From assembly GCA_003151615.1 (NCBI GenBank), contig PLXZ01000001.1:67795-131794 (forward strand): a DNA stretch of 64,000 nucleotides. Reading direction: 5' to 3'. Numbering within the stretch: position 1 is the stretch's first letter; every line of letters begins with the position of its first letter. Both the position numbers and the translations under genes were made by a program. This DNA is from Candidatus Tayloriibacteriota bacterium (GTDB lineage: Bacteria; Patescibacteriota; Minisyncoccia; Phycocordibacterales; PALSA-1337). Below the pieces are notes generated by a model. The model worked only from the letters and a program-made list of their open reading frames with translations. It was not told the origin of the DNA and did no database searches. Of the stretch, positions 10,599 to 53,865 are shown in pieces.

Positions 10599-11000
10599 AT
10601 GCCGTTATTGGAAACATTAGGAGTGATTGTTGGGATCTTCTTACTTGTCCTAATCATTCTCTTGATTTGCAACTTGCCCTACATGATAAGATCCCGCCGA
10701 ATGGCTAAGGTAGCGAAAGAATTTAATTTATCTTTCTCAAAAGGCAAAGGACGTTTTCAGTTGCTCGTCGATACTGGCACAAAGAGAAATATCATCTCTG
10801 GAAATATTAAAGGACACACTATCGAGGCTTATGATTTCGATGCGTTTGTCTGGGCAACTCGCGGACTCATTAATCATGAATGGGTTTTAGTAGTCGATAG
10901 TAATGAGCAGCAAATAAAATCATTTCCTATAAAAATCCTCGGAACAAGAACGTCTGTTCACAAGATACGCAATATTCTAAGGCAAATTTCTCATAGCTAG
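10599..11000 (+). CDS. membrane-anchored protein 133 aa
   Basis: single N-terminal TM LGVIVGIFLLVLIILLICNLPYMI then soluble domain; 6 bp after previous gene. Confidence 0.4.
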   Translation: MPLLETLGVIVGIFLLVLIILLICNLPYMIRSRRMAKVAKEFNLSFSKGKGRFQLLVDTGTKRNIISGNIKGHTIEAYDFDAFVWATRGLINHEWVLVVDSNEQQIKSFPIKILGTRTSVHKIRNILRQISHS

Positions 11001-11079
11001 TTCCGACCCAAATGCGAACGTGATACGGATTCGGTTGAGTAATTACGACATCACACCGAACATAAAAAAATACCACCGA

Positions 11080-12519: not shown

Positions 12520-14382
12520 TTACGGCATGGTAAACTCATCCCCGAAAATATCCTTCAATTTTTCGCCATGCTCCTCTGTAACCGCCGGATCAGGGACGAT
12601 TTTGCCGATATCAATGAACAGGTCTTTCTTCACCTGTAAAGGAACCTTACTTATGAATATATTTCTTTTTAATTTTTTGTCATTTTTATCGTCATCATCG
12701 GGAAGCGTCCGTCCCAAAGCCCTGCGAAGCGCCGAGTTGTGCTGATCGATGCACTCCTTGAGCCTTGCAAGCATGATTTTAATCCGATCATCTATGTCGA
12801 CTTCGTAGATGGCCGACAATTTTGTAAAAAGTACATCGAAAGCCAGGAGCTTTGCATAGCCGTCGATGACGGTCTGCCGTTCATTGACGAATACTTCCTC
12901 GTATCGGGGATTCTTGAACTCCAAGAATGTTTCGTCACCCTGCTTAATCTCCTTAAACATCATCTCTCCCTCGGATATTCCCGAAACGAGTGCCATCGAC
13001 ATGCCATATACGCTAAAAAAGTTCGGTTCACCTTTATCCGTCAGGCCACAGATGAGAAGCTCCTGATCGAGGTGATTGCCTTTTTGCTCCGGATCGTCGT
13101 CTGCGTAGACGAGACCGAGATTCGGTTCATATTCGTCGATCCGCTTTTTGAATTCCTTGACGAACTCATAGTCGGACGCGAAAGCGTAGAGGCTCTCTCC
13201 GGTTATGACTACACCCTCAAACGTCTCGAATGCAACCTTTTCATCAAGCTCTCCTTTCTCCGGAATTTCCATGCCGGAAATTTCCAAAGCTCTGCGGGCA
13301 TTTTCAAGCTCGCTGTCGCAGAGGCCTTTGCTGTAAAGTTTGTCCTGCATCGTTTCATGTTCCGTCCGTTCTCGTGTTGTAAGGGTGCCAGCAGATACGA
13401 GTTTGTTCAGAGTCGTACGGGCGAGAATTTTTTCACGAAGCCATCTTTCGAGAAGCTCTTTGCCATTACTGACGGCAAGCGGCGTGTACTGCTCAAGCAG
13501 ATCGCCGTCAAGCCAGTCCAAGCAGGCATTTTTAAGCATCGCCTCGATCGTGATTCGATGATCCTTCGCATACACTTCTACGGCATCCTTAATTTCATCA
13601 AATGTGACATCGTCCTCATCGTCCGATTCCTGATTTTTCGCCAATGATTTCCCTTTGACTGTAATGCCTTTACCAATGAGGAAGTGCCTTGCTATTTCGG
13701 CGAGAGGAATACAGGCGAAATAGTGGAAGATCTGATATTCTTTGGCGAATTTGTTATAGCAACGCTCGACGACAAGAGTGGCAAGCTTCTCTTTGGCTTC
13801 TGGAGTCAATTTGTCCTGGCCGTCAAAAAGGTTGGCGATGATTTCTTCCTGATCAAGGTACTGATGATCAACTTCGACCTCGGCGTATAGTTCATTGAAT
13901 GATTTTTTGTCCTCGGCGGTGAGATTCTCAAACGCGAGCCGGTAGACGGCGTAGTCGAAATCCATGCCGTCTTTGAGCTTGACAGCTCTCTGTTTTCCTG
14001 CGATTTCCATCGCTCCTTTCACGCTGACCTTCTTAATACGCTCAAGGCTTTCTATGCATTTCTTCATTTGACGTTGATGAGGATATGAGAGCAGGGCAAA
14101 CATCATCGTCGTTTTCCTGAAGTGTCCTGACTGAGCTTCGAGAAGAACGATTTCTGCTTCGATGCCCATACGTCCGGAATATTTCCAGCCTTCATTGAGG
14201 CGGTTCCATTCATGGGATTCAGTATTGTTCTTGGCCTGCCAATTTTCGAGTGCATTTTTGTCCGCTTCAGTCAGAACATCCTTGCCTGTCTTTGCGCGAT
14301 GAACGTCGTTTTGAATGAGCATGAGATAGCGCTCTTTAGGAGTGAGGTTTCCGCGCTGTAGATTTGTTGCGAAGTTTTTCAT
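12520..14382 (-). CDS. hypothetical acidic, largely helical protein, about 620 aa (start taken at MKNFATNL)
   Basis: long ORF; no Walker A or nuclease motif recognised; last gene of - strand operon 12520..17033. Confidence 0.5.
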   Translation of the reverse strand: MKNFATNLQRGNLTPKERYLMLIQNDVHRAKTGKDVLTEADKNALENWQAKNNTESHEWNRLNEGWKYSGRMGIEAEIVLLEAQSGHFRKTTMMFALLSYPHQRQMKKCIESLERIKKVSVKGAMEIAGKQRAVKLKDGMDFDYAVYRLAFENLTAEDKKSFNELYAEVEVDHQYLDQEEIIANLFDGQDKLTPEAKEKLATLVVERCYNKFAKEYQIFHYFACIPLAEIARHFLIGKGITVKGKSLAKNQESDDEDDVTFDEIKDAVEVYAKDHRITIEAMLKNACLDWLDGDLLEQYTPLAVSNGKELLERWLREKILARTTLNKLVSAGTLTTRERTEHETMQDKLYSKGLCDSELENARRALEISGMEIPEKGELDEKVAFETFEGVVITGESLYAFASDYEFVKEFKKRIDEYEPNLGLVYADDDPEQKGNHLDQELLICGLTDKGEPNFFSVYGMSMALVSGISEGEMMFKEIKQGDETFLEFKNPRYEEVFVNERQTVIDGYAKLLAFDVLFTKLSAIYEVDIDDRIKIMLARLKECIDQHNSALRRALGRTLPDDDDKNDKKLKRNIFISKVPLQVKKDLFIDIGKIVPDPAVTEEHGEKLKDIFGDEFTMP

Positions 14383-17248: not shown

Positions 17249-18220
17249 TCATTCGGAATACTTCAATCGATGATTGATACCCCATTTATTACCAGTGTAT
17301 TTGTGAAGTATTTCGGGAAGATTGTTTTTCTTGCACACGTTGCTTATACGTTTAATCTCTTTCGATATGACCTGCTTGGAATGTCCTAGGTCAGTCACAA
17401 GCTCAGAAAGAGTTTTTGAATTTTGGGAATATTTCCTGATGCCATACAGATGTTCAATAATGATGCACGCAAGCGGGGGAAGTTTTTCTTCCGATGTTTT
17501 CTTAAACACACCTCTCGTTGACTGATCGGATAGAAGATAGCCTTTTTCAAGAGCTAGATTGTCGTCAAGCATGATTGATCCGTCTTCTGTCGCGTACGTA
17601 TTTCGGGAAAAAAATTGTTCAACGGCTTCTTTTTTAAGAAAAAGTCCTTTCTCTGTTATTTTCTGGAATAAATCAATTATCGGCACCAGGAGTACTTTAT
17701 CCGGCAAGGAGATTTGCGGCGTTCCAGTATAGAAGACAGCACTTCGAGGTAAATGCGTGATAATGCTGAGTTTCGGCTTCTCGATGTCGTTTATGTCACG
17801 ACAGAAAAAAAGATGATAGTCCGCTCCATTTATCGTTTGCGTGCCCAAACTCCACAGTAAGCTGTCGATACTCTCGGAAATCGTTGGAGACAGAATATCC
17901 ATAGATTTCTGAAATGCACTAAGAAAATTTTCGATATTGAATTGCCACTGCTGTATTTCCGCCGGATTGAAATAATCACGTTTGGCATGTTCATTTTGGG
18001 TACACATTGTGTACGCACGGTCTTTTGAGACGTGATGAACTTCGACGTCTTCATTGTGGCAGGTCACGCACCATATGTTTTTCGGATCGCTCGTCTTTTC
18101 AAGTAAAGCCAAAGCAGGCAGGATATCAAAATCCCTTTTTCGTTTGTTGGCATCGTCGACGGTGATTACGATAGGAAAAAGACGTGCTTGTTTATTGAGT
18201 ATTTCAATTAGAAAATCCAC
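17249..18220 (-). CDS. hypothetical protein 323 aa with N-terminal Cys/His cluster (WCVTCHNEDVEVHH...CTQNEH) and C-terminal HTH-like segment
   Basis: ORF; overlaps upstream gene by 17 nt (operon). Confidence 0.45.
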   Translation of the reverse strand: MDFLIEILNKQARLFPIVITVDDANKRKRDFDILPALALLEKTSDPKNIWCVTCHNEDVEVHHVSKDRAYTMCTQNEHAKRDYFNPAEIQQWQFNIENFLSAFQKSMDILSPTISESIDSLLWSLGTQTINGADYHLFFCRDINDIEKPKLSIITHLPRSAVFYTGTPQISLPDKVLLVPIIDLFQKITEKGLFLKKEAVEQFFSRNTYATEDGSIMLDDNLALEKGYLLSDQSTRGVFKKTSEEKLPPLACIIIEHLYGIRKYSQNSKTLSELVTDLGHSKQVISKEIKRISNVCKKNNLPEILHKYTGNKWGINHRLKYSE

Positions 18221-21501: not shown

Positions 21502-21843
21502 TTATTTATCTTTGTTTACTCTTTTAACTTTTAATAGTGTATCTAATTTATCAAAACGTTTATTCCAGATATCCGTCATTTTGTGAGTCCATTGTTCGAT
21601 CTCATAGACGGCATTCATGTCGAGCTGATACATGCGTTGCTGGCCCTGCTTCTCAACGTACACCACATGTGCTTCGCGAAGAACTTTTAAATGCTGAGAG
21701 ATGGCGGCGGTGCTTTGACTGAATGTATCGCTGATGTCCGTTGCGGGTAGCCGACCTTTTTTCGCGAGCATCTCAATGATATGACGCCGGGTGGGCTCGG
21801 CAATTACATAAAATATATCCATGAAGATATAGTATGGCAACAA
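21502..21843 (-). CDS. ArsR/SmtB-family transcriptional regulator
   Basis: AEPTRRHIIEMLAKKG...ISQHLKVLREAHVV winged-HTH; likely true start at internal MDIFYV (21822). Confidence 0.75.
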   Translation of the reverse strand: MLPYYIFMDIFYVIAEPTRRHIIEMLAKKGRLPATDISDTFSQSTAAISQHLKVLREAHVVYVEKQGQQRMYQLDMNAVYEIEQWTHKMTDIWNKRFDKLDTLLKVKRVNKDK

Positions 21844-26773: not shown

Positions 26774-26846
26774 GCGCCTATAGCTCAGTTGGTAGAGCAT
26801 CTCCCTTTTAAGGAGTGGGTCGTTGGTTCGATTCCAACTAGGCGCA
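26774..26846 (+). tRNA. tRNA-Lys (anticodon UUU), 73 nt; followed by CC
   Basis: acceptor GCGCCTA/TAGGCGC, D-arm GCTC-AGTTGGTA-GAGC, anticodon loop CTTTTAA, T-arm GTTGG-TTCGATT-CCAAC. Confidence 0.85.
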
Positions 26847-28403
26847 CCTTTCAGTAGAATTTATAACCATGTTAGATACTATAGGCTTTTCGGTATTTTC
26901 GACTTTTTGAGTTGCCTGTTCGAGCTTCAAAAGTTGGTCGAAAAGTAGGGAGGGATTTGATTTTATTATAAGTCCGTCGGCTACTTCGAAGTGATTCCAA
27001 AAAAAGGCCAAAATCTGTCGCTTTAAAGCAGGAGAAGCTTTTTGGTAGGCATCGTAAATATTCCTCGTGAATTTCAGAATATCCTGCGCCTCACCGATAT
27101 TTACATTTTTCTGCTTTTCAAGCTCTATAAGCCGAGCGTCGATATTTTCAATTTCATGTTCGATCTGCTTTTTGACTTTCGTAAAGTCATCGTCGGATAT
27201 GACTTTTGCAAACAGCTTCTCCAAGACCACCTTTTGCTTCGATTCAAAAGCGGTGCGCTGATTGATGAAGTCCTTTCGCTTGCTATCGTAGGCTTTTTTG
27301 CGTTCATAGAATATGGCCTTGGCGTTATTTATGACTTCTTCAATAAATACAGGGCTGAATTCCAACGTCTTGAACTTGTCGGCCACCATTTCTTCGAGCT
27401 TGGCAACTTCAATGCACTTTCCGCAACCGCTTGGATTAGTACAGTGATAATAGGCCTTCTTTTTGTTCAAATGCCATTCGGCGGTGTATCTGCGGTCATG
27501 TTTGTAGCATCGGACGAAGCCACTTAAAAGCCATGAGTATTTACGCCGCCGACATGCGCTCTTATTTTTTGAAGTCATTATTTTTTGCACCTGATTGAAC
27601 ACCTCCTCGCTGACAAGGGCTTGATGTTTTGCATTTTTAACACATACGTCTTTCCAATTCACTTCGCCAAGATAGAATCTGTTCCTTAATGTGTTGAAAA
27701 GATGACTGTCAGATCGTTTGTTTCCATTTCGAGTACGCAGACCTTTTTCGTAAAGAATATCATTGAGTGCATAGACGTTGTAAGTCCCAGTCGCATATAA
27801 TTCAAACGCCTTTTTCACCAACGGCCCATCATTCGGATCAATGATTATGCTTTTCTGTCCCATGCGCTCTACTGACGCATCAGGATTTAAGATATTTTTA
27901 TATCCGACTGGAGCTTTTGAGGGAAAATAACCCGCTTTCGCTTTTTCTCTCATGGTCATGCTGACTTTTTCGGAAGTGATGTCTCTTTGAAACTGATTTG
28001 TGGAAGCCATGACAGTGCTAATCATTCGCGAAGTAGCGGAGTCGTCCATATTCGGCTGTTGTGTACAATTTAGAAACACCTCGTTTTTACGGAACAAGTC
28101 CATAAGATTGAGATGGTCTAACGTATTGCGGGCAAGTCGGTCGCTGTGGACGGTATAGATTGCGCCAATCTCTTTTGCTAGAACATATTTAATCAATTTC
28201 TGAATTCCCGGTCTTTTGAGATTGCCTCCGCTTCTGCCCTCGTCTTTGATAACTTCTAATATTGTGTATCCGTCTTTTTTAGCGGCTTCGACGCAGACAT
28301 TTTCTTGGGTTTCGATGGAAATTCCAGTAGTGGCTTGATCATCAGTGGAAACACGGCAGTAAACTATTGCTGGCTTAGAATTGTTGTAATTTTGAGTCTT
28401 CAT
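26838..28403 (-). CDS. large serine recombinase / integrase, 521 aa
   Basis: AIVYCRVSTDDQ catalytic motif, ...HSDRLARN, recombinase domain, Cys-rich zinc ribbon (CYKHD...CTNPSGCGKC), C-terminal coiled-coil. Confidence 0.85.
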   Translation of the reverse strand: MKTQNYNNSKPAIVYCRVSTDDQATTGISIETQENVCVEAAKKDGYTILEVIKDEGRSGGNLKRPGIQKLIKYVLAKEIGAIYTVHSDRLARNTLDHLNLMDLFRKNEVFLNCTQQPNMDDSATSRMISTVMASTNQFQRDITSEKVSMTMREKAKAGYFPSKAPVGYKNILNPDASVERMGQKSIIIDPNDGPLVKKAFELYATGTYNVYALNDILYEKGLRTRNGNKRSDSHLFNTLRNRFYLGEVNWKDVCVKNAKHQALVSEEVFNQVQKIMTSKNKSACRRRKYSWLLSGFVRCYKHDRRYTAEWHLNKKKAYYHCTNPSGCGKCIEVAKLEEMVADKFKTLEFSPVFIEEVINNAKAIFYERKKAYDSKRKDFINQRTAFESKQKVVLEKLFAKVISDDDFTKVKKQIEHEIENIDARLIELEKQKNVNIGEAQDILKFTRNIYDAYQKASPALKRQILAFFWNHFEVADGLIIKSNPSLLFDQLLKLEQATQKVENTEKPIVSNMVINSTERCA

Positions 28404-28416
28404 ATTTTTAATTTAG

Positions 28417-28623
28417 TTAATTTTGAGGCAGAAAACCTATGGGCGGTATTTCCTTGACGGTTTTCGTCTGAATATCGGAATCGTCGCCCATCGTTACCCT
28501 GCCTTGTTGGTAATTTTGTAATGCTATGCGGGTAGCCTCGCCTCGGCTTTTGGCTTCGACAACGACATGCCCATATTTAATTTCGGATAATAATACTTCG
28601 AATTTTTTGGTTAATTTTTTCAT
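28417..28623 (-). CDS. small protein 68 aa
   Basis: ORF; overlaps upstream small gene by 4 nt. Confidence 0.35.
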   Translation of the reverse strand: MKKLTKKFEVLLSEIKYGHVVVEAKSRGEATRIALQNYQQGRVTMGDDSDIQTKTVKEIPPIGFLPQN

Positions 28624-28823
28624 CTCATTAAAGAAGTGAAGTTAAACTTTGGAGCAGGTCGACGAAATTGTTTCGCAACCTTTTCCGCAGAGGCTTCCAT
28701 TTCCTGAATGAGTGGCGACGCTAACGCCTTAGCTTCGTCGAATGAGATTTGGCCTGCTTTGAGCAAGGCTTTTATTTCATTGATTTTGGCTATGGGTTTT
28801 TGAGGAGATATTGACATGTTCAT
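28620..28823 (-). CDS. small protein 67 aa
   Basis: ORF; first of an overlapping small-gene pair next to the recombinase. Confidence 0.35.
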   Translation of the reverse strand: MNMSISPQKPIAKINEIKALLKAGQISFDEAKALASPLIQEMEASAEKVAKQFRRPAPKFNFTSLMR

Positions 28824-28898
28824 ATATTCGTTTCATTTAATAATATAAACATAACAGCTTCACATCAACCGCAGTTATACACCCCCGACGCAACTTTT

Positions 28899-30146
28899 CT
28901 ATTTGAGAGAGTAGAAGTGCTTGTTGCTTTGTGCTTTCCTTACTTTTATATTCCCCTCTGGCTGTGTCGCTTTTTTGATGGCCGTATTTATTTGATTCTT
29001 GCTATATTCCTCAGAAAGCATGTCGGCCAAATCCTGCTTACCCAATTCACCTTTTTCTTTGAGAAGAGCAGTAATGGCAATTATTGCTTCATCGACGGCA
29101 ACCTTGTCGGGATCATACGCGCCCGCGTACTGGAATTTCATAGTCTTGTCGGCTTCGTTTACTTGAATGTTTACCTCGAACGGATCCTGCGCTTGGTCTT
29201 GCCGTAGTTTTGCCTGTTCTATAGCCAAGGATTTTCCGTCTTCGGTTTTTTCTACTATGAGCAGTGCGTCAACTCCCGCGACAATATCAGACGAACCTCT
29301 GAGGCTGTTGCCGGACTTCTTTCGCCCCGCAGGCTCTTTCCGGTAGTGGTGGATAAAGATTACATTCGCGCCGATGCTCGTAATTTGCTTGAACTTATTC
29401 ATAACAGCAGAAATGCTTTTAGCCTCATTTTCGTCGCCTTTGTGAATACGGACGAGAGAATCGAAGACTACGAGCTTTATATTTTTTTCCGTAATCATTT
29501 TTTTCAATGTCGCAAGGCTTTTATCTTCCTCAATGAAAAAGTCCTGCGCGTCCTGCTCAAGGTAGCAAATCGAGTGGTCTGAATTGATACCGAGCTGGCG
29601 GAATCTTTTTTGTAAGTGTCTGAAATTATTTTCCTTGTCAACAAACAGCACCGCACCTTTCGTAACTTTGAATTTTCCGAGAAAATCTTCACCTGATGCC
29701 ACGCACCGAGCTATGTCGAGCGTAAGCCAGGTTTTGAAGCTTCCAGGCGCTCCGCCGATTGCTGTTATTGACTGTTCAGGAATGAGACCTTCCACCGCCC
29801 ACACTTCCGGCCCGAAATCTTTAGCGAGAATTTCACCAACATCGACAATCTTGAAATCTACTGCAGGGATTTCCTGAAAGTTTCGTGTCTCTTTGACTGC
29901 CTTGTTGTCCGTTTCTTTACTTTCAATTTCTGGCTTATCAAGAGCGTCAAGCCATTCACCTTTTTCCCAAAACTTATGGCATTCACCACATTCCCCACGG
30001 CCTGTTTTGATGTCGATGTTGAAAGTACCCATTGGACGGCTTTGATTGTCCACCCTCCAACAAAATGGACACTGTATAGTTCTAACGTTTCCGTTCGGGG
30101 TATACAGCACACCCCTTTGTTTTAATTCTTGATCGATATCATTCAT
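28899..30146 (-). CDS. replication protein: N-terminal zinc-finger (primase-type CxxC...CxxC) + AAA_25/RepA/DnaB-like RecA-fold helicase domain
   Basis: CPFCWRVDNQ...CGECHKF; Walker A GGAPGSFKTWLTLDIA; Walker B LVVFDSL. Confidence 0.7.
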   Translation of the reverse strand: MNDIDQELKQRGVLYTPNGNVRTIQCPFCWRVDNQSRPMGTFNIDIKTGRGECGECHKFWEKGEWLDALDKPEIESKETDNKAVKETRNFQEIPAVDFKIVDVGEILAKDFGPEVWAVEGLIPEQSITAIGGAPGSFKTWLTLDIARCVASGEDFLGKFKVTKGAVLFVDKENNFRHLQKRFRQLGINSDHSICYLEQDAQDFFIEEDKSLATLKKMITEKNIKLVVFDSLVRIHKGDENEAKSISAVMNKFKQITSIGANVIFIHHYRKEPAGRKKSGNSLRGSSDIVAGVDALLIVEKTEDGKSLAIEQAKLRQDQAQDPFEVNIQVNEADKTMKFQYAGAYDPDKVAVDEAIIAITALLKEKGELGKQDLADMLSEEYSKNQINTAIKKATQPEGNIKVRKAQSNKHFYSLK

Positions 30147-30324
30147 AATTTTTCGTTAATTTGGTAATATGATTTCAGTTTCATGATTACTGGAAAGTAA
30201 AGCCTGCTCGTCTAGAAGAGCGACCACGATTTCAGCAAAAACTCTCGCCGCCTGATCAGTGTCGGAAGAAATTTTTTTGTCTAAATTGTTGCTCTCCGTA
30301 ATCATGGGGAGCAGGATAGCGCAA

Positions 30325-30349
30325 ACAAAAAAAGCCCGAAATTGGGCTT
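30325..30349 (-). terminator. intrinsic terminator AGCCC-gaaatt-GGGCT followed (on - strand) by TTTTTTTG
   Basis: read directly; downstream of stop of 30416..31165. Confidence 0.6.
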
Positions 30350-30415
30350 AGTAGGTGTCGATGTTTTTGTGCCTATAGAATTGAATTTTTCAGTCTTGAA
30401 AAGTCCTACTAGACC

Positions 30416-31165
30416 CTATTCATCTACCTTTCTTATTTCAAGAAGATACTTATTTTTACTAAAATTTTTTATAGTCATCGGTAGACCAGCTTCTTTAAGT
30501 TTTTTGCGTAATTTTTTCAATGCAGATCTAAAAGAATCCTCGTCATTGTACGGCACAGCCCTCTCAAGTTCTATCCGTTCAACGGGCGTACCTTTTTTCT
30601 GAACCTTTTCATTTGGGAGAATAATTGTCGGATTCTCAAAAAATATATTCATCATGACGCCATGCCCTCTCTCTACAGGAAGTTCAGTATCGCCCCAAAT
30701 GATTTTGTCGCCTACAAAAGTAGGTAAGCCGCGAATTCGATGAAATTGTTTGACGAACAGATTTAATTTTTTGGGTGAATCTATTAGCTCTTGTAATTTT
30801 TTCTCATCGGTCGCGAGAATATCGGATCTTTTAAAATCAACAAACTTAGCATCTTCCGTTGCGATGGCATTCGTCAATTGCTTTATAATTTCGCTATCTC
30901 CAATCACAAACCCACCAGTTCGATCTTCGATCATTTCTTTTGTGGGAAAAATGTCGTAGTCTTCATTATTCGGATTCCAAGGAATAGTATGATAGTCAAA
31001 AAATTTCGCCTTACGGAAAAGGTCGAGTATTTCAATAATTTCTATCTTGGTTATGCCCAGCTCTTTTTGTAGAGATTCAAAACTCCAAATAGGACCTATC
31101 TTCTGTGCTTTGATTGCAAAGTAGGCTACTTTTTTGATATTCTCTTTTATTTTCTCTGATGACAT
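30416..31165 (-). CDS. DNA-binding protein with C-terminal OmpR/PhoB-type winged-helix domain, about 249 aa
   Basis: C-terminal ...SFRSALKKLRKKLKEAGLPMTIKNFSKNKYLLEI resembles trans_reg_C wing; start taken at MSSEK (31165). Confidence 0.45.
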   Translation of the reverse strand: MSSEKIKENIKKVAYFAIKAQKIGPIWSFESLQKELGITKIEIIEILDLFRKAKFFDYHTIPWNPNNEDYDIFPTKEMIEDRTGGFVIGDSEIIKQLTNAIATEDAKFVDFKRSDILATDEKKLQELIDSPKKLNLFVKQFHRIRGLPTFVGDKIIWGDTELPVERGHGVMMNIFFENPTIILPNEKVQKKGTPVERIELERAVPYNDEDSFRSALKKLRKKLKEAGLPMTIKNFSKNKYLLEIRKVDE

Positions 31166-31576
31166 AATTTTTAGTTTTAGTTTTTTCCTTACCATAAGTA
31201 AGGAAAAAACTAGAAACTGCTAAATATAGGTTTAGAGCCGTATCCTTGATATCACTGCACATGCGGTTCTTTCGCGTAGAACCACGACCTAACACATACA
31301 AACCTATTTCCGTATTGAACAGTATTACTCTATCAGAAAAACGTCTGCTCGGCTTGTTCTGCCGATTGATGATTGCAAATACCTGTATCTATTGTACGAT
31401 TAAGCCACAATTGAATATATAAGTAGCCTAAACCATTTGAGCAATCAGTGGCATGGCGAAAATCCAGTCAAGGACAAAAACCCCATCGTGTGGGATTGCC
31501 TTGACTGGTCGTATCGGGAAACTGGTACGGGGAGCGCAAGCTCTCGCCCCGCGGTGGGATTTTTGTGTGCATTTTT

Positions 31577-32224
31577 ATGAAAACTATACTAGCTGATATA
31601 AAAAGTTTTTCAAAAAAGCCTGACTATGCAAAAGTCGGTAACAATATTCTGTATTCCATGTGTGAGAAATATCCAAGGCATGATAACGATTCTGAAATCT
31701 ATGCGAAATTTTGGCTTATTGGTAGAGCCTACGCTGTACAACTCGAAAGAAACAAAAGAAAAGTAAAAATTAAGGGCGATTTTTACAAACAAGTCGCAAA
31801 AACAGTTAAAAATAGATTCGACCAATTTTTGCTTCCTCTTAAAGGTAGAAATCTGACTACGAATGAAGACGTTCGTATCATTCTACAAATCCATAGGGCT
31901 GTAATGAAATTTATACGTAAAGAAATTACCGAGGATGACAAGAGGTCATTCGTATCAAAATATCTACATTTTCATTTTCGTGATCTATTTTTTATATACG
32001 ATTCAAAAGCTAGCAGTGTTATAAACAGTATAATTTCTCAATGTGGTTACGACGAAGAAAAAAGAGACTACAAAAAAATTATTAACGACACCGAATATGA
32101 CAAACCCTACGCTGATTTTTTTATAAAGTGTTTTTTCCTAAAAAAATATCTTGAAAAAAATGGTTGCAATTTTTCTTTGAGAGAGATTGATAGCTATCTG
32201 CTTGAGCGTGCGAACGCGGAGTAG
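31577..32224 (+). CDS. hypothetical Lys-rich protein 215 aa
   Basis: ORF divergent from regulator gene. Confidence 0.45.
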   Translation: MKTILADIKSFSKKPDYAKVGNNILYSMCEKYPRHDNDSEIYAKFWLIGRAYAVQLERNKRKVKIKGDFYKQVAKTVKNRFDQFLLPLKGRNLTTNEDVRIILQIHRAVMKFIRKEITEDDKRSFVSKYLHFHFRDLFFIYDSKASSVINSIISQCGYDEEKRDYKKIINDTEYDKPYADFFIKCFFLKKYLEKNGCNFSLREIDSYLLERANAE

Positions 32225-32307
32225 CTATTCACACGAAGGTTTATTTTTTGAAGCGCAGTATTTAATATAAGGATAACGTCGGTTGAAATTTAATAATAAA
32301 AAATCAA

Positions 32308-32901
32308 ATGAAAAAATATTTTATCGCAATTACCGCTTTAGTTTTTGTCCTTTTGGTTGCTTTCGTTGTATGGTTAAATCCATTTTCATGGAATTGGAAT
32401 GCCTTATCTAATGCTCATACATCAACACTAGCGCAACAAGACAATATTTGGCAAGCCTACACTTCGACAGCAGATCATTTCAGTATTTTGTTTCCCGGTT
32501 ATCCTATTACCAGTTCGAAAACTTCTACGACAATTGGTCTAGGGCCGTGTACGATTGACACTACGTATGTTGTTGAACAAAATCAAAATGCTTTTCTTGT
32601 CCAAGATTATATTTTTAAAAATTCTATAAAGTCTTATAACCCTCAAACATTTCTTGAGTATATCTTAGATAACGAGGATACGGGACAGAATTTGCAACTC
32701 GTGTCATCAAGCTCTAGTACTTATAATTCCTATCCAACATTGGATTACATAACTAGAGGACCTGGGGGCGTGTTCTTTAAGGGACGCATGCTTTTAATAG
32801 GTCAAATAGTATACGACTTGTCCTATGAATATCAGGTGAACATTACGCCTCGTGTCGATGCGGATTATCAGAAATTTATTTCTTCGTTCCAAGTTCAATA
32901 A
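32308..32901 (+). CDS. secreted paralog-family protein 197 aa
   Basis: N-terminal TM; FPGYPITSS...IGQIVYDLSYEY domain shared with 9454..10140 and 32908..34272. Confidence 0.5.
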   Translation: MKKYFIAITALVFVLLVAFVVWLNPFSWNWNALSNAHTSTLAQQDNIWQAYTSTADHFSILFPGYPITSSKTSTTIGLGPCTIDTTYVVEQNQNAFLVQDYIFKNSIKSYNPQTFLEYILDNEDTGQNLQLVSSSSSTYNSYPTLDYITRGPGGVFFKGRMLLIGQIVYDLSYEYQVNITPRVDADYQKFISSFQVQ

Positions 32902-32907
32902 AATAAT

Positions 32908-34272
32908 ATGTATAAAAAATTAAAATCTAATATGGTGTTAAAGGTCATTTTAGGGGCATTGTTTATCATTGCATTAGTTTTTATATTTAAATTTTCCGCC
33001 AGAAATAATGACAATAGCGACAATAACACAGAAATCAGCGGACAAAGTTATAACTTGGCACAAGGTGGTTTCTCCCTATTTTTTCCAAGCCAACCAACGT
33101 TTTCTACTTCAACCCAAGATTTTTTTGGAAGTGGAAACATGGCATTGGATGATACTTATGACTTTAGTAGCACGGATGGAAGTATCTATTTGGCGGCTAC
33201 CTACGCAAATTCGGTATTTGCGGGTCTAACATCTTCTCCTGAAGAAAATCTGAAAAGTGAGTTATCCCATACATCGCTTGGTTATAATTTAATTTCTTCA
33301 AACATTACAGAGTACGATGGTTTACCGGCAATAGATTATTTGATGTATGGTACGACTACCAACATGTATGTATCTGGGAGGGACATTGCGAAAGGTGGTG
33401 ATATATACATGATTGAATATAGTTATCCACCTGGAAAAGAAAACAAACAGCTTGAGCAAAATTTCTTTGGCTCATTAACCTTTTCAGCTGTTGCACAAGA
33501 TTCCTCCGATAAGAGTACTGTACAACCTCAGTCAGAAACACAGCCTACTCAGACTGTACCACCTGCGAAATTAACTAGTCCGTCTGTCAGTCTTTCGCCT
33601 TCTCTCATTAACCAAATAGAGCCGACAATTGTTGAAATAAACTGTTGGTCAGGCGAGAACGCGACCACAGTAGGAACAGCGGGATCAGGTGAAGCTCTTA
33701 TGGCAAAAGGGTCTATCGTATTCCTTAGTAATTATCACGTCTACGCCGAGGCGTACACAGGAACACAACCACCTAATTGCTACGCTACTTTCCCCGAACC
33801 TCCTAATTTTTCAGACAATCCTTACTATGGAGATTATCAGATAAGTTTGTTGGCTTATAAATATAATCCTGACACATATCAAGATGAAGCTCTTTTTGTT
33901 CTCGGGGCACCACTTACTTCAACTAGTACATTGGATCAAATTCCCACACTAACAAGTCTACCCCTCTCAGGGCTAACATCTGATTGTTCTAATGTAGAAG
34001 TCGGCGATAAATTAACTATTTTTGGCTATCCAGCATCAGGTAACGCACTAGGGATTTCAGAAACTGTAACACAAGGAATAGTGAGCGGCATCGTACCTGG
34101 GCCAATCTATAAAACAGATGCTCCGATTGACCACGGCAATTCTGGCGGTATTGCCATAAGAGATTCTGATTCTTGTATCCTCGGTATACCGACATTAGGC
34201 GTATCGGGTCTTACGGCGGGTATAGGATATATACAGTCGACATATCTTCTTGGTGAACCGACGACTGATTAA
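32908..34272 (+). CDS. secreted protein: paralog-family N-domain + C-terminal trypsin-like (S1/chymotrypsin-fold) serine protease domain
   Basis: N-terminal TM; FFPSQPTFS...YMIEYSYP domain; C-terminal His (SNYHVY), Asp, and DHGNSGGIAIRD catalytic Ser motif. Confidence 0.6.
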   Translation: MYKKLKSNMVLKVILGALFIIALVFIFKFSARNNDNSDNNTEISGQSYNLAQGGFSLFFPSQPTFSTSTQDFFGSGNMALDDTYDFSSTDGSIYLAATYANSVFAGLTSSPEENLKSELSHTSLGYNLISSNITEYDGLPAIDYLMYGTTTNMYVSGRDIAKGGDIYMIEYSYPPGKENKQLEQNFFGSLTFSAVAQDSSDKSTVQPQSETQPTQTVPPAKLTSPSVSLSPSLINQIEPTIVEINCWSGENATTVGTAGSGEALMAKGSIVFLSNYHVYAEAYTGTQPPNCYATFPEPPNFSDNPYYGDYQISLLAYKYNPDTYQDEALFVLGAPLTSTSTLDQIPTLTSLPLSGLTSDCSNVEVGDKLTIFGYPASGNALGISETVTQGIVSGIVPGPIYKTDAPIDHGNSGGIAIRDSDSCILGIPTLGVSGLTAGIGYIQSTYLLGEPTTD

Positions 34273-34498
34273 ATTAATTATCAATAAATAACAAAAAAAT
34301 GAAAATAGCACTTGGATATATTTTTGTTTCAGTTGGTTTATTTTTCTGGATTCTATCAGTCCCTAATAACTACAACTCTTGGGTAGAGGCAATATCGTTT
34401 GCAGTCTTCATTGTGGGGTTAGGATTGTTGATTGACGGAAAGATTGAAGCTAATAATAAGGCTAAGGGTAATTAAATATATTATTTCCATAAAAAAAT

Positions 34499-35056
34499 AT
34501 GAAAAAATACGCATGGATTTGGATAGTGATTATAATAATATTTTTGATGATAGTTGCCTTTTCAATTGGACAAAATTCAAATAATTTAACTCAGCCCGTA
34601 GCAACAGCGAGCGATAATTCGTCCCAATCGCAAGTTACGAAACAGTCAATAACACCGCCAACTACAGATAATACGACAAAAAACATGAACCCTGTCTCAG
34701 ACGCTCAAAATAATTGTACTTTACAAAATTGGGAATCAATAGTCGAAGTAAACAATCCAAACACAGTCGAGGCTAATTCGCAGTTTTCCATACATTACAA
34801 TAGTACCTTAGGAAAATGTTTTGTGGAGATAACATCTGTAGATCCAGCTACCAGTAATAATGATTATGTTTCGTCTACATATGATGCCATTGCTGACACA
34901 TCAGGGGTAAATACACCAGAAATCTTGTTTCGAGACACATGGGATTCCTTATCGTCTGGTCAAGGTGGTTACGCCGCAACTAAAAGTCCTGCGGGTGTAG
35001 TACCGATATCAAATGATGAGTTTGGGACACTTCGACAAGAATACATGGAGAATTAG
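34499..35056 (+). CDS. secreted hypothetical protein 185 aa
   Basis: N-terminal TM MKKYAWIWIVIIIIFLMIVAF; Thr/Asn-rich. Confidence 0.45.
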   Translation: MKKYAWIWIVIIIIFLMIVAFSIGQNSNNLTQPVATASDNSSQSQVTKQSITPPTTDNTTKNMNPVSDAQNNCTLQNWESIVEVNNPNTVEANSQFSIHYNSTLGKCFVEITSVDPATSNNDYVSSTYDAIADTSGVNTPEILFRDTWDSLSSGQGGYAATKSPAGVVPISNDEFGTLRQEYMEN

Positions 35057-35453
35057 ATAATATAAAAATATTAATTCGGTAGACATCTCTATGTCCCATA
35101 TGCCAACAACCTCCCAGTTACGGGAGGTTGCGAGCGTTCATCAGATCAGCACACCTAATAATTAACCACATATGAAAAACGTAATAATCAGACATACCGC
35201 ATGCGGGGGCCGAAACCCGCACCGCTATTCTAGTCCCATGCATATTTTTATGCAAGTCTACCCTTATAAATCCACATGTTCGACTGTGTTACTTCGCGTT
35301 AAACAGTCGTAAATCATAAAACAGGTAACGGTACAACCTCACGCTGTAGCGACTAAGAGCGCATGTGTTTTACGCGAATAACGCGATAGCAGAGGTTGAT
35401 TGTCAAACAGGTTCCGCATACAATGAGCATATTATTAGCCATTATTAACGATT

Positions 35454-35975
35454 ATGCGCATGTCTCAACACACAAAAACTGTTAACAGCACACACCCACG
35501 CATTGATATCCGCAACTATGTTACGAATTTCTTACAGTGCATCAGGGAAAAAGAGGGGCGAACATTCAGAACCAACCACGACGGCGAAGTCGCCTATATG
35601 AAACAGCTACTCAATGATCCGAAGTATACGGCATTCAAATCAATGGACGATTTTCGAACAGGCATTCCGTTTTGGCATAAACAGGAAGTAGACTGTGTAC
35701 CCTCAAATCTCGGAGGCGGTCGCGGATCCATTTTTTACTTTATCTGCAACTGCTGTAATAGACGAATGAAATATCTCTATAGGTACAGCGAGCTTGAATC
35801 GCCCCTCTGCCGTGTATGTTGCAGATTGAAGTACGAAGCACCGACGAGAAAGGCAAGGATGTTTTCAAAACTGCTACGGAAAACGTATCTTTCATCAGAG
35901 GACAAGTATTTAATCATACAGCGAGCAGGTATCACGCTAGATGACTTAAACTACCAAGCAAACACCGCGTTCTAA
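35454..35975 (+). CDS. hypothetical protein 173 aa with Cys cluster (FICNCCNRR...CRVCCR)
   Basis: ORF. Confidence 0.4.
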   Translation: MRMSQHTKTVNSTHPRIDIRNYVTNFLQCIREKEGRTFRTNHDGEVAYMKQLLNDPKYTAFKSMDDFRTGIPFWHKQEVDCVPSNLGGGRGSIFYFICNCCNRRMKYLYRYSELESPLCRVCCRLKYEAPTRKARMFSKLLRKTYLSSEDKYLIIQRAGITLDDLNYQANTAF

Positions 35976-36848
35976 GCGCGAGAGCCATCCGCCCTTGCGT
36001 TCTTTTTCGTAAACCAATGAAATGTATACTTACTCGGCTTCTGTCGCTATCTGCCGCGTTCCGTTTTTTTTCAGTTTCTAGTTTCTTGGGCTATATAGTG
36101 GACAAAAAACTAAAAACTACACCATATGGAAAAAATTTCCAACAAAAAACACCCTGGCAAAAGAGTGTTTTTATTTTTACTGCGCTATACTATCCGATCG
36201 ACACCAAGAGCCAATTGATGCTCTTGTGGCAGTGAGGACACGGCGGAAAAGTTTTCCCCGCGGTCATGTGAATGACTCGGTGATGACCGCATTGTCCCTG
36301 AGACTGATAGTTACCCGTTGTCGAGCACTTCTGGCCTGTATGGTTCACTGTTTTTTAAATTCACTTTTATAACCGAGCTGATGCACCTGTGGATACCGTA
36401 GTCATTGTCCCCGACGGCCGTCTAGGGTACAATTGAAATGTTCGAGTTTCAAGACATCTGAGTGTGTCTAGCTAGGTACCTCTGCCACACAGGGGTATTT
36501 TGCTTTTTGGAATTTCCAGTGAATTTGATTAGAGTGGGACTTTTCTATCGGTTTTACCCGCGCAACTACTACCACTTTCATAGAAGGACTACTGTACAGC
36601 TAGTCCTAGGAATACTATCATATTTGGTAGACATTGAGAAGTAAAATTGCGTCATTTTGAATACAAAGATATAAAAAATAGCGTATGTAAATCCATAGGT
36701 GAAAAGTAGGCTCTTACAGAGCCATAAAAATGGCATTAAAATTAAATTTTAATGAGTAAATTAAACATTAAATATAGGAAAATCAAACTAAGCTATAATT
36801 TACACGGAAGCATGTTGACAAGAAGTAATGGCTTGATATGATAGCCGT

Positions 36849-37235
36849 ATGGATAAATACAAGTTCGTAGAATTCAAATCTACAGGTAGTCGTTTCAACC
36901 TAGTTATCACTCTTGGAAAAGCCGAGAGGTTTTATCTTGGCAGTTCCTTTTGTACCAAGTACGATATTTTTTCAATGGTCGGGGTCAAACTTTTTTACGA
37001 CAAGACTAATAACGCCGTCGGTTTTCGATTTGTAAAAGAAGCCGAGGAGGGCATGGTCGGTATTAAGAGCTTGGATGATAAATCGGCGTACATAAACGCA
37101 AAGGCATTTTTGGGCATCAACGATATTGATCCGCAAAAATATATCGGAAGATACCATCCTGTAGAAGTTACAGACGACGGTGGCAGAAAAGTTTTTGTTG
37201 TCGAGCTTAAGGAAGCTGATAAAAAAACCGTTTAA
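36849..37235 (+). CDS. hypothetical protein 128 aa
   Basis: ORF after 600-nt non-coding stretch. Confidence 0.4.
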   Translation: MDKYKFVEFKSTGSRFNLVITLGKAERFYLGSSFCTKYDIFSMVGVKLFYDKTNNAVGFRFVKEAEEGMVGIKSLDDKSAYINAKAFLGINDIDPQKYIGRYHPVEVTDDGGRKVFVVELKEADKKTV

Positions 37236-37265
37236 CAAAAATCTCTTCCCCCTCCCTCCCGTATT

Positions 37266-38123
37266 TTAATTAGATTTCTTTGACCGTTTCTTGCTTGGGA
37301 GCAAATTCTTTTTTGCTTGCTTCTCCATGAGTTTCATCTCTTTTTTAATCTCCTTAATATGCTTTTCTGGCTTGAGATTTTCGGGTAAATCACCGCCTAT
37401 ATCCTTTATTGTCTGTCTGACTTTTCCACCAACCATGTTGTGTGTCCTCTGCGCGGCGCTATCACCCCTTACTCTGTCTTTTTTTAACTTTTCATCAGTC
37501 TGAGTAATGCGAAATAAATTGGCGGCAAGTTCAGTTGCGCCGGCTCGATCAAGCAGTTCGCCTTTTTTGATACCCTTTTTTACTTCTACGTCTGAGAGAG
37601 GAGCGCCGTACAAGCCACGATAACCAGCGTCGTTGAAAAGTCCAAAATGAGAAACCCCCGCCTCTTTCGCTGTTTTAAAAAGTTTTTTATTTTCACTAGT
37701 AACTTCTCCCCGAATGAATAATCTTTTTTCTGCATCGGGCAGTTTATCAAAAATTTCTTGTCTTCTCGTCTGAACGGCAAAATAGGTTTGAGCCAAAGCT
37801 ATTTGTGGTATTTTAGGATCTCCATTTTGAGCTATCAAATAACAAGCGTATCGGTCTAATTTCCAGTCTTTGACAGCTCTTTTTCCACCAGACCCAATAT
37901 CTACCAATTTAGTCAATTGGCTAAAATGGTTCTCGACTATTTGACCGCTATTTAGAGCGGCACGAGCGGCACGAGTTACGACCTCATTAAAGGCTTGCCA
38001 TGTTGCGTATCCAAGCAAAGGAAACAACTCTCGAGCCGTCCAAAACTCGATACCATTTTCATCAACTTCTTTAATCTCCTCGAACCCTTTGTTCGGCCCG
38101 CTTATAATAATTTCTTCTGGCAT
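37266..38123 (-). CDS. dinD: DNA-damage-inducible protein D (DinD)-like, Bro-N domain
   Basis: EFWTARELFPLLGYATWQAFNEVVTRAARAA...HFSQLTKLVDIGSGGKRAVKDWKLDRYACYLIAQNGDPKIPQIALAQTYFAVQTR closely matches E. coli DinD N-terminus. Confidence 0.8.
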   Translation of the reverse strand: MPEEIIISGPNKGFEEIKEVDENGIEFWTARELFPLLGYATWQAFNEVVTRAARAALNSGQIVENHFSQLTKLVDIGSGGKRAVKDWKLDRYACYLIAQNGDPKIPQIALAQTYFAVQTRRQEIFDKLPDAEKRLFIRGEVTSENKKLFKTAKEAGVSHFGLFNDAGYRGLYGAPLSDVEVKKGIKKGELLDRAGATELAANLFRITQTDEKLKKDRVRGDSAAQRTHNMVGGKVRQTIKDIGGDLPENLKPEKHIKEIKKEMKLMEKQAKKNLLPSKKRSKKSN

Positions 38124-38258
38124 ACCGCAATTATAAACTTTTTGTTCATGACGCGCTACCCATTGATTTAATAAAAAGTAACCTATTGTACAAGCCTTGC
38201 ATGTATTCTGTGTCAGACAAAATAGTTATAATAATCTCCTGAAGGCGGCACAAAGTTT

Positions 38259-38765
38259 TTACATCAAATACTCCTTATGAAGAGTGACGGATAATCCGGC
38301 TTTTTTGGCCTTGTCTATGGTGTCCTGCGTGCCGACGCTTTTGTTTACCTGAAAGGCATAGACCTCGTCGGAAACTTTGACTTCTTCGGTGTCCCTCATG
38401 AAATAATGCTCCTGCGTAATGGTGTGATAGGGCATTTCGACAAGACTGGCGGGATTAATTTTTTTGATTTTCCTTAAAACTGAAGCCATGCCGTCTATAT
38501 CTTTTTTGGTGATCGGTTCGTGACACCAGTTGAGGTAGTAGTCACTGATAAAATCTTCAAGATAAGCGGGAATGATTACTTTCAACCTTGAAGCATCCGG
38601 CTGGAGTTTCATAGCTTCATCCATTGCAAAATAATCAACGCCGGTACCCCCCCCTGTGAGCACAGCGTCACCGCGGCCGATAACTTCGCGCACCGAATTT
38701 CTGACGTCTTCTTCAACCTGTCTGTTTGTCAGTCTCCATGTTCCCGTGAATAGAATCCATTTCAT
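38259..38765 (-). CDS. hypothetical Rossmann-fold protein, SLOG/LOG/DprA-like (GGGTGVD motif)
   Basis: VLTGGGTGVDYFAMDEAM. Confidence 0.35.
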   Translation of the reverse strand: MKWILFTGTWRLTNRQVEEDVRNSVREVIGRGDAVLTGGGTGVDYFAMDEAMKLQPDASRLKVIIPAYLEDFISDYYLNWCHEPITKKDIDGMASVLRKIKKINPASLVEMPYHTITQEHYFMRDTEEVKVSDEVYAFQVNKSVGTQDTIDKAKKAGLSVTLHKEYLM

Positions 38766-53621: not shown

Positions 53622-53865
53622 AACCGGGTAGTTGCGTTCGAATTTCAGCCAGAATCACCTCTTTTTTCATAAAGATATGGTTTCGCGCGGCCGGACCGCC
53701 TTGAATCCTGATAATTTTGTTTTTCATCTCAATTTCCTTCAAATCAAGCTTCACTCCGGCAATTTTTTCTATTGAATCGACAATAATTTGCCTCGTGCCC
53801 ATCTCTTTCAATGCCGCATTTTTGAATTTATCGAAAAAACCGCCGATATTGAAGTTAATTGGCAT
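53599..53865 (-). CDS. small protein 88 aa, possibly DUF721/DciA-like (located next to dnaN)
   Basis: position between dnaN and next gene; size; no strong motif. Confidence 0.3.
   Translation of the reverse strand: MPINFNIGGFFDKFKNAALKEMGTRQIIVDSIEKIAGVKLDLKEIEMKNKIIRIQGGPAARNHIFMKKEVILAEIRTQLPGFIVSDLQ

Follow-up and report, generated by a model that had tools for sequence, protein, structure and literature searches.

A probable mobile element at tRNA-Lys in a Paceibacteria genome and its family of LOOT RNA-bearing elements with tRNA-targeting serine integrases

The window analysed here is a stretch of 64,000 nt from a Paceibacteria genome (Patescibacteria, or candidate phyla radiation, CPR); window coordinates are used throughout, position 1 being its first letter. 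At the 3' end of a tRNA-Lys(UUU) gene begins a segment of 11.4 kb (approximately 26846-38249), with a GC content of 0.40 within and 0.46 outside, which is probably a mobile element integrated in the chromosome by its own large serine recombinase (LSR). The element is part of a widespread, undescribed family that also carries the LOOT RNA. The features that define it are the target tRNA, the integrase, the two attachment (att) sites and the RNA:

26774..26848, + strand: tRNA-Lys(UUU), the integration target (left arm of attB), intact after insertion (ARAGORN; Rfam tRNA 73.8 bits)
26838..28403, - strand: large serine recombinase (integrase), 521 amino acids (aa) (Pfam, PHROG 95)
26840..26873, no strand: attL, comprising the tRNA 3' core AGGCGCAC (26840-26847) and then arm P' CAGTAGAATTTATAAC (26852-26867), by motif position and inverted match
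31422..31566, + strand: LOOT RNA with a 3' extension (RF03000; Rfam model 31425-31545)
38161..38251, no strand: attR, comprising the conserved right end (38161-38241), with arm P GTTATAATAATCTCCTG (38225-38241), and the core AGGCGGCAC (38243-38251), by cross-element homology

The integrase gene runs into the tRNA from the opposite strand. Its stop codon TAG occupies 26838-26840, and the C-terminus (...STERCA, then stop) is read into the tRNA with an overlap of 9 nt if the tRNA ends at 26846, as given by the Rfam tRNA model, or of 11 nt if it ends at 26848, as given by ARAGORN; the 9 nt stated in an earlier note on this DNA hold for the Rfam end. As in large serine recombinases generally, a resolvase catalytic domain (Resolvase PF00239, 1.9e-30, residues 12-158) is followed by the Recombinase (PF07508, 7e-15) and zinc-ribbon domains. 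The zinc ribbon (Zn_ribbon_recom PF13408) scores 24.7 bits, slightly under the cut-off of 25.3, and its residues C299, H302, C321, and C327 are invariant in 41 homologues, as are Y15, R17, V18, S19, R64, R89, and R92. The best family match is PHROG 95 'integrase' (2.4e-86). The LSRs of phages and integrative and conjugative elements (phiC31, Bxb1, A118, and SPbeta SprA; PHROG 95) and the Ccr recombinases of staphylococcal SCCmec are built in the same way, from Resolvase, Recombinase, and zinc-ribbon domains and a long C-terminal region, and the YxRVS catalytic motif is conserved. Unlike the known LSR equivalogs, however, the protein reaches only 120 bits against the NCBIfam CcrB cut-off of 900 and 73 bits against the XisF cut-off of 375.

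Homologues of the integrase number 370 (E<1e-20), and all those to which a source gives a taxon name are patescibacterial. A metagenome scan with the alignment of the 41 homologues yielded 80 loci, 63 of which have at least 170 nt beyond the integrase and were used for counting adjacent tRNAs. A convergent tRNA abuts or overlaps the integrase end in 42 of these 63 loci, against a background of 0.1 tRNA per kb; thus, the layout is a family trait. The tRNAs concerned are Asn(GUU) in 18 loci, His(GUG) in 12, Lys(UUU) in 10, and Phe and Thr in 1 each, and the target tRNA has thus changed within the family. In this the family differs from other LSRs: its target is a tRNA 3' end, and the clade has shifted among Lys, Asn, His, Thr, and Phe tRNAs. 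Insertion at the 3' end of a housekeeping gene, which is not inactivated, is also seen for SCCmec at rlmH. Targeting of tRNA 3' ends is characteristic of tyrosine integrases (Int-Y). For these, a tRNA attB with cores of 25-76 bp is described as the common organisation (PMC8092301); in contrast, the enzyme here is a serine recombinase and the shared core amounts to approximately 4-9 nt.

The host setting was compared in 80 GTDB loci collected through the flanking DNA polymerase I, the closest of which is 65% identical; 79 of the 80 are labelled as Patescibacteria/Paceibacteria-type metagenome-assembled genomes or plain uncultured bacteria. The gene order polA-holA-[tRNA-Lys]-doxX-spoU-fpg-Mur ligase is retained in approximately 25 GTDB relatives, and 23 of the 26 relatives scanned have a tRNA-Lys(UUU) in the interval from holA to doxX or spoU. 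The DNA located 3' of the tRNA ranges from about 8 nt to 8.4 kb in the relatives, with unrelated contents; it is shorter than 300 nt in five loci (L006, L035, L039, L043, and L077), and in L021 the tRNA-Lys is inverted with short gaps on both sides. In the window the same interval measures 12.7 kb. By tblastn, no gene of the element is present at the locus in the approximately 25 relatives except for the integrase of L008, a 26%-identical serine recombinase that likewise runs into the 3' end of tRNA-Lys. The flanking genes are contiguous or split by unrelated DNA in these relatives; therefore, the content of the window is an insertion, and the tRNA-Lys site between holA and doxX is an insertion hot spot. 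The comparison proposed in the earlier note consequently finds the site empty or differently occupied in related genomes, as for a tRNA-integrated island, and the same genes do not stand in conserved synteny at tRNA-Lys in these relatives. At the same site in L032, L037, and L041, ARAGORN gives the anticodon UUA ('tRNA-Stop') where tRNA-Lys(UUU) is expected, which may point to recoding or to a tRNA of suppressor type.

Three contigs of other samples (L166-L168) carry an integrase 95% identical to that of the window. Between the tRNA and position 30355, L166 and L167 match the window DNA at 86-90% identity, as does the shorter L168 over its full extent; the tRNA-Lys is identical at 75/75 positions, and the upstream host flank is unrelated. 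Beyond the helicase, the regulatory genes of L166 differ from those of the window. Furthermore, a second LOOT-bearing element, L165, is situated (record 156706-178325) elsewhere on the 562,931-bp contig of ENA assembly ERZ27254241 that contains the window. Its integrase is 52% identical to that of the window, and its two small proteins are 93% and 78% identical to the pair directly upstream of the window integrase, the DNA of the small-gene pair being 85% identical. The zinc-ribbon protein of L165 is 69% identical to the 173-aa protein of the window, and its own LOOT scores 119 bits. One further segment is shared with both L165 and L166:

32237..32328, + strand: 92-nt segment, intergenic DNA plus the initial codons of the 197-aa gene, almost unchanged in sister elements

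This segment is 98.9% identical to L165 and 94.6% to L166, although the flanking genes differ; it may act as a promoter, encode an additional small RNA or mark a recombination hot spot. No tRNA adjoins the integrase of L165; only the remnant GCGGAGCC, like a tRNA-Asn end, is present. On its far side the right-end motif described below occurs twice, 0.9 kb apart, and a truncated LOOT-like match at its end (21596-21620) hints at a third LOOT copy in the genome.

The placement of the two element ends rests on position and on cross-element conservation. At the left, arm P' falls within the final codons of the integrase gene. In ten tRNA-Lys elements, the motif ...AGAATTTATAA stands at a constant distance from the tRNA end, and the integrase-side sequence common to them, with fixed spacing to the tRNA, is ...CAGNAGAATTTATAA. 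Residue I514, encoded within this motif, is nearly invariant, whereas the rest of the integrase tail is variable.

At the right, the boundary that the earlier note had left unlocated is placed at 38225-38251. It lies outside both of the non-coding stretches suggested there as attR, origin or non-coding RNA (35057-35453 and 36236-36848), in which no Rfam match (E<=1), iterons, notable repeats or conservation with sister elements were found. Positions 38219-38243, in the 135-nt gap after dinD, repeat in inverted orientation the tRNA-adjacent sequence 26850-26873. Segment 38161-38241 shares homology, which ceases at 38241-38254, with the distal ends of the elements in L045 (two copies), L097, L128, and L132. 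Five more loci, L095, L096, L098, L112, and L165 (two copies), have the terminal motif (G)TTATAATAATCTCCTG (<=2 mismatches) at the end and on the strand that are expected; the right-end motif is thereby kept in 9 further distinct loci, with two copies each in L045 and L165. In every case the homology breaks off immediately past ...CTG of the motif. The elements delimited in this way measure 8.4-11.4 kb, the far ends in the other loci lying 8.4-11.2 kb from the integrase-proximal ends. In addition, the approximately 10 nt beyond the motif resemble the 3' end of the element's own target tRNA in 5 comparable elements (window, L096, L098, L128, and L132), as the following pairs of after-motif sequence and tRNA 3' end illustrate:

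window: AAGGCGGCAC and TAGGCGCAC
L098: TTCGGGGCAC and CTGGGCGCAC
L132: GGGGGAC and GGGCGGAC
L096: GGGGGCTCCA and CCGGCTCCA

In L045, the two copies of the right-end motif (12142-12198 and 13343-13416) lie 1.2 kb apart beside holA, with a LOOT at 17343-17467, as though elements had entered this tRNA-Lys site in tandem or one after the other.

The attR core AGGCGGCAC reproduces 9 nt of the tRNA end (AGGCGCAC) with one indel, and the 3' flank of tRNA-Lys reads AAAGTTTTTAC. A longer direct repeat of the tRNA end, for which the earlier note had proposed a search, was found neither with the 22-nt end (<=3 mismatches) or a 12-mer (<=2) nor by generic repeat finding; the 9-nt copy is the sole match. 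Across 29 loci, a 30-nt local alignment of the tRNA end found repeats only in L108 (13 nt of the tRNA end, at 11.8 kb) and L161 (30 nt, being a second complete tRNA-Asn, at 10.2 kb). The attachment arms of LSRs are usually short imperfect inverted repeats around a tiny shared core, and the att arms predicted for the element would be alike. The reconstructed attP, GTTATAATAATCTCCTGAAGGCG | CACCTTTCAGTAGAATTTATAAC, forms an imperfect palindrome of approximately 58 bp centred in the shared GCAC; for this predicted site, 11/15 inner positions match, with GTTATAA/TTATAAC in addition, as read by eye. The predicted attP junction is GTTATAATAATCTCCTGAAGGCG(G)CACCTTTCAGTAGAATTTATAAC and the predicted attB junction is GGTTCGATTCCAACTAGGCGCACAAAGTTTTTACATC, the attB containing …CTAGGCGCACAAAGTTTTTAC…. 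The crossover dinucleotide would lie in this shared core.

A larger element is conceivable, which would include the next two genes, encoding a 168-aa protein and a ZIP transporter, and would end at about 39563 next to holA. Neither gene is present at this locus in any relative (tblastn, 1e-5), so that the stretch separating holA from the element is variable in its own right; several relatives have an otherwise short holA-tRNA interval. However, the GC content at third codon positions (GC3) changes from 0.36 in dinD to 0.52 and 0.56 in these two genes, which is host-like against 0.30-0.50 in the element; the terminal motif and the tRNA-like core occupy 38225-38251, where all cross-element homology stops; and other relatives also have unrelated short genes in this interval. 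The larger extent is therefore very improbable. The 168-aa protein itself, encoded just beyond the element (38259-38765), is without a Pfam match and has a weak match to PHROG 289 only; it contains a GGGTGVD motif.

Relative to related genomes the segment is an insertion, both of its ends are placed, and it belongs to the integrase family described above. The empty and refilled sites, the 95%-identical sister in another host flank, the right end with its terminal inverted repeats, and the tRNA layout in 42/63 loci together support the proposal of the earlier note that a serine integrase brought a mobile element with a replication helicase and cargo to tRNA-Lys. Several results weigh against this reading. 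The terminal inverted match is insignificant by itself in a 16-kb search (score 22; shuffle mean 21, maximum 26), and a blind search for terminal inverted repeats gave nothing consistent in 29 other loci. The tRNA-like attR core carries an indel, which blurs the position of the crossover dinucleotide. The attP junction pattern is absent from IMG/VR, and no excised circle was found, including in the 3 contigs with identical proteins, all of which have the same integrated arrangement; look-ups by exact protein (doxX, spoU, ZIP, holA, integrase) gave no empty site in the same species.

The uniform integrated state, the indel between the attR core and the tRNA end, and the missing circular junction would also fit an old genomic island that is immobilised, with an integrase no longer acting. 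This explanation is improbable, as all open reading frames (ORFs) of the element are intact, the catalytic residues of the integrase are conserved, a sister element sits in a different host flank with modules exchanged, and relatives have empty sites. Moreover, in L165 the small-gene pair is 85% identical at the DNA level and the 92-nt segment 99% identical; such near-identical segments in the same genome imply recent exchange. The element of the window, presumably integrated by its own recombinase, may be mobile at present.

The LOOT RNA (RF03000) of the window scores 88 bits against a gathering score of 46.4 and covers model positions 1-121 of 121. It is situated in the divergent region between a leftward and a rightward operon, a third intergenic region that the earlier note had not flagged, and it opens the rightward transcript. 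Immediately upstream is one more feature:

31392..31421, + strand: promoter-like TTGTAC-18-TATATA (consensus match only), ending a few nt before the LOOT 5' end

The segment 31369-31424 is conserved at the DNA level in L127, L097, and L085. With a covariance model of our own, built from 16 copies, the LOOT of the window scores 122 bits, and the RNA is detected in 36 of the 80 integrase loci. Among the loci with an integrase identity of >=43% and >=4 kb of upstream sequence, the count is 26 of 30, and these 26 copies lie 0.9-3.8 kb upstream of the integrase, invariably on the opposite strand. Control patescibacterial DNA (1.28 Mb) yields a single match, located in another island beside holA that carries the right-end motif of the family. 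LOOT is also present in three IMG/VR contigs (L169, L172, and L173) bearing a distant serine recombinase. In these contigs it stands beside a conserved block of two N6/N4 methylases, a small helix-turn-helix (HTH) protein, and a protein of approximately 500 aa with a sub-threshold terminase-nuclease match; L169 additionally has a reverse transcriptase and an AAA_5 protein.

The helices and GNRA-type loops of LOOT are conserved across 30 copies. Directly beyond the Rfam model on the 3' side comes the tail (Y)AUGUGGUGGGCUUUUUGU (strand Z, 31550-31565), which is conserved and ends in a U-run. Strand Z and strand X (31475-31490), the conserved AAAAACCCAUCAU of the second hairpin loop, pair to form a 16-bp pseudoknot helix. 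In this helix 92.5% of 480 cells are paired and 10 of the 16 pairs show compensatory changes, for example from CCCAUCA/UGGUGGG to CUCCUAG/CUAGGAG or CACCACG/CGUGGUG. The covariation score is 0.44 vs 0.08-0.14 in slid controls, and none of 500 shuffles attains as much. Rfam's local hairpin, which uses the same strand, is weak, with 71% pairing and no excess over controls. With strong X:Z covariation and a weak local hairpin, LOOT therefore has a pseudoknot that is missing from the Rfam model. A two-state switch between the local hairpin and X:Z was considered and is not claimed, the local hairpin being weakly supported.

In the literature searched, LOOT is described only as a 'metagenomic-based RNA' (PMC7779021) and as unusual, with many cross-covariations (PMC7657543), and no host, context or function is given for it. 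New for LOOT are its assignment to a host lineage and to mobile elements, its constant place at the 5' end of an operon, and the 16-bp pseudoknot helix past the Rfam 3' end.

A regulatory role of LOOT is suggested by this position, and its most economical reading is that of a cis-acting leader controlling entry to the rightward operon. Strand Z carries a Shine-Dalgarno-like GGUGGG, and the GTG start of the first rightward gene of the window (31565) follows 6 nt after it. An ORF of >=90 codons begins <=60 nt from LOOT in 28/30 loci, and in 7 loci an ATG lies exactly 8 nt past the GGG of Z. Two results count against a simple leader and against a general need for the RNA. The start codon that comes next is 28-60 nt past LOOT, outside the helix, in at least 16 of 30 loci; therefore, occlusion of the ribosome-binding site alone cannot explain everything. 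Simultaneously, LOOT is missing in L166, the sister with a 95%-identical integrase, so it is not essential to the backbone. In L166 a 73-aa HTH_3 (Cro/CI-type) gene heads the integrase-side operon (L166 1408-1774), followed by a different 262-aa protein, and the comparison with the window suggests that RNA-based and protein-based control modules are interchangeable.

The chief rival to the leader reading is a discrete small RNA (sRNA) ending at the U-run, which would act in trans, e.g. as an immunity or copy-number RNA, with X:Z and the U-run as terminator; it is a possibility of limited weight. Rfam classes LOOT as an sRNA, the RNA is conserved across loci in which the downstream gene is variable (one family in 12 loci, several others elsewhere), and a further hairpin stands between LOOT and the next gene in many loci. 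Immunity based on operon-leader RNAs is known in P4 and P1/P7. However, the U-run pairs with the A-run of X in the pseudoknot, which is unusual for a simple intrinsic terminator, and the start codons of the 7 loci and of the window follow Z at the short distances given above. Returning to the cis-acting leader, a stronger version of it, held only tentatively, makes LOOT a master regulatory RNA, whose pseudoknot would sense a signal (an element protein, a metabolite or the host state) and switch between a silent integrated state and rightward expression. If true, LOOT would be an RNA-based counterpart of the phage repressor switch, in bacteria with a nearly unknown mobile-element biology.

The leftward operon, which ends with the integrase, contains the following:

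28417..28623 and 28620..28823, - strand: two overlapping small genes (ORFs), 68 and 67 aa, directly upstream of the integrase
28899..30146, - strand: RepA-like replicative helicase, 415 aa (AAA_25 9.7e-33)
30416..31195, - strand: 259-aa protein, first gene of the operon, with a predicted C-terminal winged helix of OmpR/PhoB type
31175..31215, no strand: 18-nt inverted repeat (94% complementary, 5-nt spacer) spanning the start codon of the 259-aa gene

The two small genes overlap by 4 nt, as reported earlier, and homologues occupy the same spot beside the integrase in L086-088, L097, L115-117, L127, L135, L137, L157, L165, and L166. Their products are candidate directionality factors or regulators. 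The toxin-antitoxin pair offered as another option in the earlier note is unsupported, the only Pfam matches being sub-threshold ones of DpnD/PcfM and SHOCT-like type.

The helicase has a Cys-rich, zinc-finger-like N-terminus, and its closest and sole PDB sequence match is RSF1010 RepA (1G8Y, 1.2e-5). It stands directly upstream of the integrase in 14 LOOT loci; in sister elements it is sometimes swapped for an HTH-like protein of approximately 150 aa, and the first leftward gene is highly variable. The description of this gene as a zinc-finger primase/AAA_25 helicase holds for the AAA_25 domain and the Cys-rich N-terminus and fails for the primase: only AAA_25, KaiC, and DnaB_C matches were obtained, over residues 101-304, the PHROG primase/helicase families align with the ATPase part only, and the 100 N-terminal residues match nothing. 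The AAA_25 domain is shared with RSF1010 RepA and other AAA_25 helicases of plasmids and phages, and the protein differs from RSF1010 RepA in its additional N-terminal Cys-rich motif and in that no associated primase or initiator was recognised. The element would replicate autonomously on the strength of this helicase; against this, domain and repeat scans identified no origin, iterons or primase.

For the 259-aa protein, the winged helix proposed earlier finds no support from sequence, there being no family match in Pfam, PHROGs or NCBIfam, and it is recovered at the fold level only, in a medium-confidence AF2 model (predicted local distance difference test, pLDDT, 70). With Foldseek, this model matches the DNA-binding domains of SaeR and AdeR (prob 1.0, TMt 0.64-0.76, E 0.02-0.05). 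The protein has just 2 homologues among 5.8 billion proteins and, judged from the model, is a candidate regulator or initiator; the 18-nt inverted repeat at its start codon is, from its sequence, a candidate operator.

The rightward genes and the cargo are arranged as follows:

31565..32224, + strand: first rightward gene (ORF), 219 aa from GTG 31565 (188 aa in the public gene call)
32308..35056, + strand: cargo of 197-aa, 454-aa (trypsin-like protease at the C-terminal), 58-aa, and 185-aa proteins (ORFs, Pfam)
35454..35975, + strand: 173-aa four-cysteine zinc-ribbon protein, a family-specific element gene
36849..37235, + strand: 128-aa protein (ORF), no matches in family scans
37266..38123, - strand: DinD homologue with a Bro-N domain (NF008573, 322 bits vs a cut-off of 242)

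The first rightward protein has no family matches (Pfam, PHROGs, NCBIfam, and further scans). The trypsin-like protease with paralogous N-domains and the DinD-like gene, both recognised in the earlier note, are borne out: the 454-aa protein matches Trypsin_2 at 2.5e-8, and its N-domain is a paralogue of that of the 197-aa protein (27% identity, tblastn 6.5e-6), while the DinD homologue passes the cut-off given above. The N-domain recurs among the cargo proteins of L088, L094, L095, and L107, and the 58-aa and 185-aa proteins possess N-terminal hydrophobic segments. The 173-aa protein has 15 homologues only, among them those in L088, L126, L127, and L165, with C98, C101, C119, and C122 invariant; its AF2 model (pLDDT 73) is without a fold match. 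The DinD homologue contains Bro-N (7.4e-8) and matches PADLOC PDC-S13, a candidate anti-phage defence family, with 335 bits. No ORF in 26838-38123 has a Pfam or NCBIfam match to a relaxase, coupling protein or type IV secretion component. Within the non-coding stretch 36236-36848, an AT-rich patch (36601-36800, GC 0.26) is a candidate origin.

With this gene content the element is like the tRNA islands of the phage-inducible chromosomal island (PICI) and P4-like type: the integrase lies beside a tRNA, the size is about 8-12 kb, a replication helicase and a divergent regulatory region are present, the cargo is variable, and several elements occur per genome. It is unlike them in its serine recombinase, in having no long direct repeat of the tRNA end, and in its CPR host; in addition, genes for packaging or capsid remodelling were not identified by Pfam and PHROGs. 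Another reading, which is rather unlikely, is that of a phage satellite or a defective or miniature prophage, moved in its own or in helper capsids and not as naked or plasmid-like DNA. The size class of 8.4-11.4 kb and the set of integrase, helicase, regulators, and Bro-N/DinD are like those of known satellites such as PICI and P4-like elements. GP3_package, a small-terminase-like HTH domain (Pfam 3e-18), follows LOOT in L112, L113, and L141, but this domain is essentially an HTH. PHROG 95, the best family of the integrase, is a phage integrase family, and LOOT occurs in the three IMG/VR 'viral' contigs, one with a 510-aa protein that has a sub-threshold Terminase_6C match (E=4.7e-4); yet IMG/VR is without close relatives of the integrase or the helicase. 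Furthermore, neither structural genes (capsid, portal, tail) nor a large terminase are recognised in the window by Pfam, PHROGs, and NCBIfam, and 0/10 large cargo proteins of sister elements match capsid, portal or terminase families in PHROGs. One of these proteins matches endolysin/lysis-annotated families over approximately 60 residues, the top one being filed under 'head and packaging', which is probably a cell-wall-binding domain; the others match only families of unknown function, methyltransferases or clamp loaders.

For an element integrated by its own recombinase, the following mechanism is proposed. Crossover would occur within the shared core GCAC, i.e., the end of the acceptor stem and the discriminator base of tRNA-Lys(UUU); at the extreme 3' end of the tRNA, it would so leave the tRNA intact. 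The right arm of attP would overlap the last codons of the integrase. The leftward operon (winged-helix protein, RepA-like helicase, two small proteins, and integrase) would serve regulation, replication of the excised circle, and integration/excision, the two small proteins presumably taking part as suggested above. The rightward transcript would start with LOOT, whose strand Z would present the GGUGGG ahead of the start of the first gene; as a cis-acting leader, LOOT may gate the expression of the secreted proteins and protease, the zinc-ribbon protein, and the DinD-like candidate defence gene.

Much of bacterial diversity belongs to the Patescibacteria, which can scarcely be cultivated and for which hardly any mobile elements or genetic tools have been characterised. 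The locus defines a compact element family of approximately 8-12 kb whose ends can be read. In the systems studied to date, serine integrases act without host factors, and the predictable, naturally re-targeted set of attB sites could serve CPR genetics and genome engineering. Meanwhile, LOOT gains a host lineage, a context, and an improved structure, which makes its function directly testable.

Two other regions of the window have similar traits. At 9600-12400, a distant resolvase-type recombinase (11395-12321) is 24.5% identical to the integrase over 318 aa, and a paralogue of the cargo N-domain (9646-10083) adjoins it in a low-GC patch (0.375 at 10-11 kb); this region may be a further island or a remnant. 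At 53567-53656, ARAGORN calls a tRNA-Arg(UCU) of 90 nt, unusually long and unreported by the Rfam tRNA model at the gathering score, which may be intron-containing or false. The GC content is low (0.40) for 2 kb after it, and 54000-56000 could be another tRNA-associated island.

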